From an uncultured Candidatus Saccharibacteria bacterium (lineage in GTDB: Bacteria; Patescibacteriota; UBA1384; DTJR01), in contig CAZAOT010000003.1 in the NCBI GenBank assembly GCA_964487045.1, positions 3,730-67,729 on the forward strand: 64,000 nucleotides of DNA, in the 5' to 3' direction. A program made the translations under genes and the position numbers. Under the pieces are notes generated by a model. The model saw nothing but the letters and a program-made list of their open reading frames with translations, had not been told where the DNA came from and did no database searches. Positions 47,419-48,248 of this stretch are shown here, piece by piece. How positions within the stretch are numbered: position 1 is the first letter of the stretch; each line of letters opens with the position of its first letter.

Positions 47419-47448
47419 TTGACTAGTTTCCCAGAATTTGGTAAACTT
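47419..47448 (+). promoter_or_regulatory. Promoter of cassette F (TTGACT-N18-TGgTAAACT)
   Basis: -35 at 47419-47424 and -10 at 47443-47448. Confidence 0.45.
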
Positions 47449-47511
47449 TTCGGATCTTAGGATCGACAAGTTCATTACATCAAGGCCAGAGGCCAGAGGT
47501 AGGGATTAGTC

Positions 47512-47853
47512 ATGGATAGGCACGAGAAGTCCAGGGAGTTGTCTCGAGTGCTGTTCGAGTCTGTGCAGGCAGTAGCTGCTACGCATGGTATCACGCTTCC
47601 ACAGCGGGGAACGTCGGACGATGTTGAGCGCGCTTTCGCGGCGCTCGCAGAAAAGGCTGACTACCGTCGCATCATGGTGACGGCTGGTCCTCAGTCATCT
47701 GAACCCCAGATCACGATCTCGAGTGACTGGGGGGGCAAATTCGATCGTATCATGGAAGTCGTCGAGCTGATCAACGAAGACGACACGGCCCTCGTTCTTG
47801 CACGTATCGAAGGCCATGGGCTGGTCATCTACTGCATCCCGGGAGGAGAGTGA
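47512..47853 (+). CDS. Orphan protein F1 (113 aa), GC-rich
   Basis: SD AGAGGTAGGGA then ATG at 47512. Confidence 0.5.
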   Translation: MDRHEKSRELSRVLFESVQAVAATHGITLPQRGTSDDVERAFAALAEKADYRRIMVTAGPQSSEPQITISSDWGGKFDRIMEVVELINEDDTALVLARIEGHGLVIYCIPGGE

Positions 47854-47854
47854 G

Positions 47855-48190
47855 ATGAGCAGGAGCGTCGCTGATTGGGCGGTAGTGGCAGTTGCTATTC
47901 TCGCTGCTGCCCTGAGGATCTTTGAGGACGATGAGGCTCCGAGCAATAGCGTCTGCAAGAGGGCGGAGGAAGTGCTCGGACTCGCTTCAGTTGAGGTCAA
48001 GCTTGGCGACCTGGACACTAAGCCTGGACAGCCGCGAGTGAAGATCGTCTCGGTCTCTTTGCCGAATACCGGTCTTGCGGCTGGACGCGTACCAGCGCTC
48101 ACCTCGGCTATCCAGCAATCATCCGGCTTGGCCTTGGTGAACCAGCACACAAACGGCGGCATGACCACATTAGTGGCACGCCGCGCCTAA
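47855..48190 (+). CDS. Orphan protein F2 (111 aa) with an N-terminal TM helix, translationally coupled to F1
   Basis: GGGAGGAGAG SD. ATG at 47855 is 1 nt after the F1 stop. Confidence 0.5.
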   Translation: MSRSVADWAVVAVAILAAALRIFEDDEAPSNSVCKRAEEVLGLASVEVKLGDLDTKPGQPRVKIVSVSLPNTGLAAGRVPALTSAIQQSSGLALVNQHTNGGMTTLVARRA

Positions 48191-48212
48191 TCCCGCAAGG
48201 GTACGAGGCTTC

Positions 48213-48248
48213 GAGGCTTCCCGGCTTGCCGGGAAGCCTCTTTCTTTT
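48213..48248. terminator. Bidirectional terminator (cassette F / glycosyltransferase gene)
   Basis: GAGGCTTCCCGGCTTGCCGGGAAGCCTC hairpin followed by TTTCTTTT. Confidence 0.6.

Follow-up and report, generated by a model that had tools for sequence, protein, structure and literature searches.

A small GC-rich gene pair beside tRNA-Gln as a probable vertically inherited orphan operon of one Patescibacteria sub-clade

In this study, we analysed a stretch of 64,000 nucleotides (64 kb, hereafter the window) from an uncultured Candidatus Saccharibacteria bacterium. Two small genes, F1 and F2, lie there in a 0.8-kb stretch of 57-60% GC between a tRNA-Gln(CTG) gene and a convergent GT4 glycosyltransferase (GT) gene. 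The sequence comparisons suggest that F1-F2 is probably a genuine two-gene operon with its own transcription, a lasting part of the gene complement of one Patescibacteria sub-clade (Candidate Phyla Radiation, CPR) and an old acquisition that is now vertically inherited. The original prediction had placed the pair where integrated island cargo is expected and, speculatively, likened it to a toxin-immunity or two-component effector arrangement. We correct this call to a conserved, clade-specific orphan operon; the horizontal transfer had been called from GC content and tRNA proximity alone. The window belongs to a genome of low GC (45.6% overall, and about 42% once the GC-rich islands are set aside), and its gene content is typical of Patescibacteria/CPR, including RpsF and RplS with long charged tails, Ddl, NYN, GltX and YraN. 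The protein genes at the locus are as follows.

47512-47853, plus strand: F1 open reading frame (ORF), 113 aa, an acidic, soluble protein (isoelectric point 4.91; 19 D+E against 12 K+R)
47855-48190, plus strand: F2 ORF, 111 aa (ATG at 47855 to TAA at 48190), predicted to consist of a hydrophobic N-terminal helix, which is conserved, and a small alpha/beta domain
48247-49341, minus strand: GT4 glycosyltransferase, convergent on F1-F2, its stop codon abutted by the operon terminator

Both ORFs and the acidic character of F1 were confirmed as first described. The two genes had been said to overlap as TGAGATG. Instead, the F1 stop codon TGA (47851-47853) is followed by a single G (47854) and then by the F2 start codon ATG (47855-47857), leaving a 1-nt gap. 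Coupling of F1 and F2 is still plausible because the strong Shine-Dalgarno sequence (SD) of F2, GGGAGGAGAG at 47841-47850, lies inside the 3' end of F1. The SD of F1 is GAGGTAGGG at 47496-47504. The cassette holds F1 and F2 only; the neighbours tested were a cupredoxin-like protein, two orphans and the GT4 gene. The cassette sequence was identical in four independent Logan assemblies and near-identical in a fifth, and it is therefore no assembly artefact.

Homologues of both proteins are rare. In a word-indexed search of 5.8 billion proteins, F1 matched only itself, and F2 matched, besides itself, only P0003 (contig L006; 71% identity), which is encoded beside a GT gene. Repeating this search with the F2 alignment added nothing. 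An exhaustive phmmer search of 1.84 billion representative proteins found the F1 homologues P0005 (43% identity, E = 2.5e-12), P0006 (34%) and P0008 (35%); two long repetitive proteins that also scored against F1 were set aside, as their scores came from low-complexity stretches. More distant F2 homologues were found on contigs L087, L088, L089-L092 and L094. In the F1 alignment, A4, the motif LP-RG--D(V/I)E and the residue Trp73 do not vary. The genes had been called orphans. This holds in that no family was matched, but both have rare homologues in relatives, always paired at the same place.

Every F1 homologue lies directly 5' of an F2 homologue, and the pair converges on a block of GT4, GltX and YraN through to RplS. 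The pair was found at this syntenic position in at least five diverged lineages. In L087, one strand carries tRNA-Gln(CTG), a TrpR-like gene, a PRA-CH-like gene, the F1 and F2 homologues and a 68-aa transmembrane protein, and the other carries GT, GltX, YraN and RplS; the F1 and F2 homologues overlap there, as against the 1-nt gap of the window. The 264-kb contig of P0008 has the L087-like order and, upstream, the same block as the window, from an M16 peptidase to EF-P-SSB-RpsF-Ddl-NYN. The pair or F2 also stands at the same place in L088, L089-L092, L006 and L094; in the last, a Joint Genome Institute (JGI) contig with a GT 69% identical, the F2 homologue lies in a GC-rich stretch after the GT gene. 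Between the window and L087, amino-acid identity was 41% for F1 and 35% for F2, and 80%, 78%, 69% and 82% for GT, GltX, YraN and RplS, respectively. Length and motifs are preserved even in homologues of 30-43% identity. F1 and F2 are fast-evolving yet retained, under purifying selection.

We then compared F2 of the window with that of L006. The ratio of nonsynonymous to synonymous divergence (dN/dS) was 0.24 with a dS of 0.85, and the flanking GT fragment gave a dN/dS of 0.05 with a dS of 1.08. The dS of F2 is close to that of GT, and therefore the two diverged together. The shifted sense frames of F2 gave dN/dS values of 1.4 and 2.1. One antisense frame gave 0.23, but it contains three stop codons, and the annotated sense frame is the only open one. 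By the measure of these substitution ratios, F2 is under purifying selection. At the position of F1 (L006 1-173; 173 bp of a single low-coverage contig), L006 has only a stop-ridden, frameshifted remnant. One frame still has the Asp-Trp at the invariant Trp73, and a second frame has the final five codons and the SD; F2 in the same contig is intact and constrained.

The pair was present in all sampled relatives with a GT identity of at least 69% and absent at 56% or below, and no strain-level empty site was seen in this thin sampling. In L007 (GltX 61% identical), tRNA-Gln lies 76 bp after GT in the same orientation, and F1/F2 are absent. L099 (GT 51% identical) has GltX, GT, tRNA-Gln, a 123-aa ORF, a cupredoxin-like gene and NYN, in this order and without F1/F2; its cupredoxin-like protein is homologous to the 46675-47052 protein of the window. 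L095 and L098 have neither F1/F2 nor tRNA-Gln at the site. Since GT is followed directly by tRNA-Gln without the pair in L007 and L099, an ancient insertion at the tRNA, that is, an acquisition on the 3' side of tRNA-Gln, is plausible on this gene order. The core order of the window is the same as that of L099, except that the tRNA-Gln-F1-F2 segment is inverted between GT and the cupredoxin gene.

These gene orders would fit the following history. The ancestor of the sub-clade may have gained a block of four genes (TrpR-like, PRA-CH-like, F1 and F2) 3' of tRNA-Gln. The tRNA and the acquired block would then have been inverted and vertically inherited since. Later, the window lineage would have deleted the TrpR-like and PRA-CH-like genes, which brought the tRNA beside F1 and left half a terminator together with a duplicate, 121 bp away, of the tRNA 3' end with its terminator. 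Both genes are absent from the whole 64-kb window, and it is only through their probable deletion in the window lineage that the tRNA adjoins F1. The putative junction, just 5' of the -35 element, was located in an alignment of the sequences that precede the operon in the window, L087, L088 and L089.

47405-47412, plus strand: ATCAGGGG, right half of the terminator hairpin that relatives have 3' of the PRA-CH-like gene, kept in the window and marking the putative deletion junction

The TrpR/YerC-like regulator and the PRA-CH (HisI-like) protein lie between tRNA-Gln and F1 in L087 (946-1977), and also in L088, L089 and the P0008 contig. The PRA-CH-like protein has an N-terminal extension of about 135 aa, and its gene is rich in GC at third codon positions (GC3, 0.58-0.67). 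A stand-alone HisI-like protein is odd for a reduced CPR genome, and it could be functionally linked to F1-F2. The other end of the operon is a variable slot, and in some lineages F2 and GT are separated by an additional GC-rich gene. Examples are the 68-aa transmembrane protein (L087 2769-2975) and a 166-aa ORF (L094 2800-3300, minus strand).

The pair has its own predicted transcription signals. The original prediction of a promoter-terminator unit was borne out by a consensus scan and by folding, which gave the following elements.

47419-47447, plus strand: sigma70-like promoter with -35 TTGACT (47419-47424), a 17-nt spacer and an extended -10 TGgTAAACT
47470-47480, plus strand: motif GTTCATTACAT in the 5' untranslated region (5'UTR), conserved in L087, L088 and L089 (four lineages with the window)
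48192-48201, plus strand: small CCC-GCAA-GGG hairpin (3 bp, GNRA tetraloop) directly 3' of the F2 stop codon
48213-48248, plus strand: intrinsic operon terminator, a 12-13 bp GC-rich stem (48213-48240) followed by the T-run TTTCTTTT (-29.8 kcal/mol, z = -4.0)

In four lineages, the TTGACT of the promoter does not vary, and the -10 position keeps the sequence TTTG(G/T)TA. The distance of GTTCATTACAT to the promoter and to the start codon varies among lineages (the L087 copy lies at about 2064-2074). The motif occurs once in the window, where one match is the chance expectation. The motif may serve as a binding site for a regulator or as an RNA element. A 5'UTR hairpin that would sequester the SD, predicted in the window (z = -3.8), was rejected, as the motif of L087 lies too near the SD for this hairpin to form there. 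The promoter and UTR motifs are not common to the other cassettes of the window. The small hairpin, which precedes the main terminator, is identical in L006 (about 511-520) and reads CCC-GAAA-GGG in L088 (about 947-956). An equivalent of the terminator hairpin with its T-run stands at the same place in L006, L087 and L088.

We next examined base composition. F1 and F2 have 57.3% and 59.2% GC, as against 39.6% in the adjacent GT gene, so that their description as GC-rich genes was correct. GC3 was 0.64 and 0.65 in F1 and F2 and 0.38 in GT by a first count. Counted position by position, GC at the first, second and third codon positions was 0.65/0.43/0.65 in F1, 0.64/0.50/0.66 in F2 and 0.50/0.32/0.38 in GT; the excess is thus not confined to positions determined by the amino acid. 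The homologues in other lineages compare with their core genes as follows.

L087: F1/F2 homologue GC3 0.66-0.72; core-gene GC3 0.49-0.56
L088: F1/F2 homologue GC3 0.53-0.64; core-gene GC3 0.34
L089: F1/F2 homologue GC3 0.61-0.68; core-gene GC3 0.49
L094: F1/F2 homologue GC3 0.59; core-gene GC3 0.37-0.44

The GC3 excess over core genes was +0.1 to +0.3 in every lineage measured (the window, L087, L088, L089 and L094). Synonymous third-position differences between the window and L006 were roughly balanced, with 16 sites GC in the window and AT in L006 and 10 the reverse. A foreign signal should have ameliorated over such near-saturated synonymous divergence, and therefore the GC richness looks maintained. 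On this comparison, it looks to be kept high by selection or by GC-biased repair or recombination rather than being un-ameliorated foreign DNA. A GC-biased recombination or repair process has been proposed for bacteria (Lassalle et al. 2015, PMC4450053).

The contig L005 gave evidence of recombination at the locus. It has one mismatch to the window in 1024 bp over the cassette and 29 differences in GT (Fisher p = 2e-9). The differences cluster at 48252-48705 in the GT 3' end, with 17 of the 29 within 48252-48343, followed by 424 identical bases. The variants of this patch resemble the L006 allele, and the sequence on both sides of it is identical to the window. We take this pattern as evidence of homologous recombination between diverged lineages right beside the cassette. 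L005 had also been considered as a sign of cassette mobility. This was rejected, as the clustered GT differences make a recombinant patch in a window-like strain. At the left end of L005 (1-116; junction at window 47226), AT-rich DNA unrelated to the window precedes the final 8 nt of tRNA-Gln. No tRNA was called in this DNA, which contains the short tRNA-Gln-like fragments CTGGAGCTGG and TGGTTCTAAC. Either the strain may have undergone a rearrangement or insertion at the 3' end of its tRNA, or the contig may be chimeric at this end.

A broader proposal is that a local, long-lived GC-raising force acts on a subset of genes (F1-F2 and perhaps other cassettes), holding GC3 at about 0.6-0.7 against about 0.35-0.5 in the core genes of a reduced genome, over divergences at which synonymous sites are almost saturated, and that F1-F2 serves these episymbiotic bacteria as a new module of the envelope or of host interaction. 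We consider this proposal rather unlikely as it stands. Candidates for such a force are GC-biased gene conversion at recombination hot spots and selection on codon or mRNA properties; the recombinant patch abutting the cassette in L005 may be offered in favour of the former.

F1, F2 and their homologues gave nothing but sub-threshold noise against Pfam, NCBIfam, PHROGs and PADLOC, with nothing consistent across members; this noise comprised matches to HMGL-like (E = 0.003-0.16), SecE (0.15) and Cas6 (0.0085) profiles. Profile searches of the PDB with F1 and F2 found nothing. F1 and F2 are not detectable paralogues of each other (hhalign probability 0.14) despite a similar predicted order of secondary structure. 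An N-terminal transmembrane segment had been claimed for F2. The hydrophobic helix is indeed conserved, but the membrane span is borderline: its Kyte-Doolittle 19-residue mean is 2.10 in the window and 1.5-1.75 in homologues, and the segment before it is acidic, not basic, with a conserved acidic residue at the helix start. Membrane insertion of F2 via this helix is possible, going by hydropathy. In a reading that we regard as possible though doubtful, F1 would be a cytoplasmic acidic alpha/beta protein and F2 its translationally coupled partner, anchored or exported by the N-terminal helix, and the two would form a lineage-specific envelope-associated module with no role in addiction or defence.

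Several points weigh against these readings of the operon and its role. Nothing characterised is homologous to F1 or F2, and the function proposed for them is a guess. The F2 helix is short, borderline as a membrane span in homologues and not preceded by a basic N-terminal region, which leaves the idea of an envelope anchor weak. The AlphaFold2 models are of low confidence by the predicted local distance difference test (pLDDT), at 49 for F1 (single-sequence input; unusable) and 61 for F2 (built from two sequences), and fold searches with them were uninformative. Most of the relatives are short metagenomic contigs. The step from integration to inversion is a parsimony argument on very few, distant outgroups (GltX at most 61% and GT at most 56% identical), and the maintenance of GC3 is drawn from five lineages with unpolarised substitutions.

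We considered whether F1-F2 is a toxin-antitoxin (TA) or toxin-immunity pair, in which one protein (for example a membrane-active F2) would be toxic and the other (the acidic F1) would neutralise it. Like type II TA and toxin-immunity pairs, F1-F2 consists of two tightly spaced genes of about 110 codons under a single promoter and terminator, with an acidic upstream protein; the downstream protein has a hydrophobic helix, and both evolve fast in sequence. Were F1 the toxin, its loss in L006 with F2 kept would also suit an orphaned immunity gene. However, unlike type II TA pairs, F1 and F2 match no TA, immunity or defence family, and F1 has no recognisable DNA-binding antitoxin domain. The pair is single-copy: neither paralogues nor repeated cassette ends were found elsewhere in the 64-kb window. 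Moreover, it is confined to one syntenic site and conserved vertically in one clade rather than patchily. If F1 were the antidote to F2, the state of L006, where F1 has decayed and F2 stays constrained (dN/dS 0.24), should be lethal. We therefore find no positive evidence for the resemblance that had been suggested, and consider a toxin pair quite unlikely.

The second alternative is that F1-F2 is recent genomic-island cargo, that is, foreign GC-rich DNA inserted by a site-specific integrase at the 3' end of tRNA-Gln, with the duplicated tRNA end as its att scar. The elements concerned are as follows.

47160-47233, plus strand: tRNA-Gln, anticodon CTG, CCA encoded (ARAGORN; Rfam tRNA 58.3 bits)
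47229-47271, plus strand: hairpin starting inside the tRNA 3' end (tRNA terminator, copy 1; inverted repeat I1; -27.7 kcal/mol, z = -6.95)
47337-47394, plus strand: diverged second tRNA 3' end with its own hairpin (direct repeat D1, inverted repeat I2; -22.6 kcal/mol, z = -5.7)

An orthologous tRNA-Gln(CTG) adjoins the same gene block in L087, L007 and L099, and an Rfam scan of the region found the tRNA only. The pair shares several traits with tRNA-linked islands. It lies on the 3' side of the tRNA, with the operon promoter starting 186 bp 3' of it; its composition is atypical in both GC (58% against 40%) and GC3; it is absent from deeper relatives, including the outgroups L007 and L099; and a duplicated tRNA 3' end lies nearby. 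This duplication is real. The last 30 nt of tRNA-Gln (47216-47245) are repeated at 47337-47366 with 90% identity, 121 bp apart, and the 20-nt repeat core has exactly two occurrences, a number reached in 0 of 100 shuffles. The unrelated sequence in L005 left of 47226, inside the repeat core, also speaks for an island.

However, both copies lie upstream of F1 and none was found beyond the operon terminator, so that the cassette is not bracketed by the repeats. The repeat similarity runs on into the terminator hairpins with compensatory changes, as in a tandem duplication: the second hairpin has three substitutions in its 5' arm for which its 3' arm compensates, and both hairpins are intact. Therefore, the tRNA 3' end and its terminator (about 58 nt) were duplicated, rather than a bare att core. 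L087 has the pair and lacks the 121-bp tandem duplication. In addition, no integrase was found in the tested neighbouring ORFs or in the L087 block, and F1 and F2 had no match in phage, plasmid and viral-contig collections. The synteny across lineages and the dS equal to that of the flank show co-divergence with core genes; the GC excess, present in every lineage measured, has not been ameliorated and argues against a recent arrival. Finally, unlike in tRNA-linked islands, it took a deletion in this one lineage to bring the tRNA up against the operon. Recent cargo is thus very unlikely. From the claim of integrated cargo, the position 3' of tRNA-Gln and a plausible ancient insertion stand, and recent or mobile cargo is contradicted by the synteny, the matching dS and the missing integrase. 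From the claim of an att-like site, the duplication itself stands, and it is best read as a deletion or rearrangement scar rather than as an att site bracketing cargo. A deletion scar, a decayed second tRNA copy and an old att site are the candidates for its origin.

Slimmer still is the chance that F2 is a divergent type IV pilin-like protein or pseudopilin, a hydrophobic helix on a small beta-sheet domain, with F1 as an accessory. The conserved acidic residue at the start of the F2 helix would suit this, and type IV pili are abundant among CPR bacteria. Against it, the prepilin motif G|(F/M)xxxE is absent from the N-termini of F2 (MSRSVADWAVVAVAILAAALR) and its homologues, no Pfam pilin or N-methylation profile was matched, and F2 has an extra helix between strands 2 and 3. 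The F2 model is of low confidence (pLDDT 61 only), and with it Foldseek found nothing significant in the PDB and no pilins. That the ORFs are spurious, i.e. GC-rich non-coding DNA free of stops by chance, has a negligible probability: although long chance ORFs occur on several frames here (e.g. 47695-48168 on the minus strand, 157 aa), low dN/dS coincides with an open frame only in the annotated frame, the protein homologues keep length and motifs, and the SDs, promoter and terminator are conserved.

The probable operon is ordinary in kind, and the finding is a modest one overall. Its one unusual property is the GC and GC3 excess that persists through long vertical descent. Such a strong deviation can be stable in vertically inherited genes of a low-GC, reduced genome, which calls for caution with compositional island finders; it may also offer a way to study how GC-biased recombination or selection acts among CPR bacteria. 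The original prediction was to be refuted by housekeeping homologues of native GC in relatives. Half of this came true: relatives do have homologues, but these are not housekeeping genes, and their GC is not native either. F1 and F2 define two undescribed families of small proteins with a fixed genomic address and a conserved promoter and 5'UTR motif in an uncultured Patescibacteria clade, and they are tractable candidates for lineage-specific biology.

F1-F2 resembles the ORFans of CPR/Patescibacteria, small fast-evolving proteins without database families among conserved core genes. Unlike usual ORFans, the pair is conserved, forms one predicted transcription unit under purifying selection and is compositionally distinct in several lineages. 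It has company in the window, where at least ten further GC-rich ORFs have no Pfam match. The other GC-rich islands, at 55-68% GC against a background of about 42%, lie at 5951-7300, 9401-10250, 10951-11550, 34001-34550, 37651-38950, 40451-41700, 53051-54450 and 58801-59800. All ten tested ORFs of these islands were without a Pfam match, including one of 382 aa (37684-38832) and one of 339 aa (40578-41597). In the P0008 relative, some of the equivalent island slots (YraN-RplS and RpmA-DnaE) are also filled by ORFs without a Pfam match. Its M16-EF-P slot holds GT2 and Polysacc_synt genes instead; some cassettes are thus conserved and others variable. Nearer to the tRNA, in the stretches 46032-46678 (plus strand) and 46675-47052 (minus strand), two small orphan ORFs without family matches (113 and about 101-115 aa) have as their neighbour a lipoprotein of cupredoxin-like type (Pfam Cupredoxin_1, E = 2.9e-5), which also adjoins tRNA-Gln in the outgroup L099.

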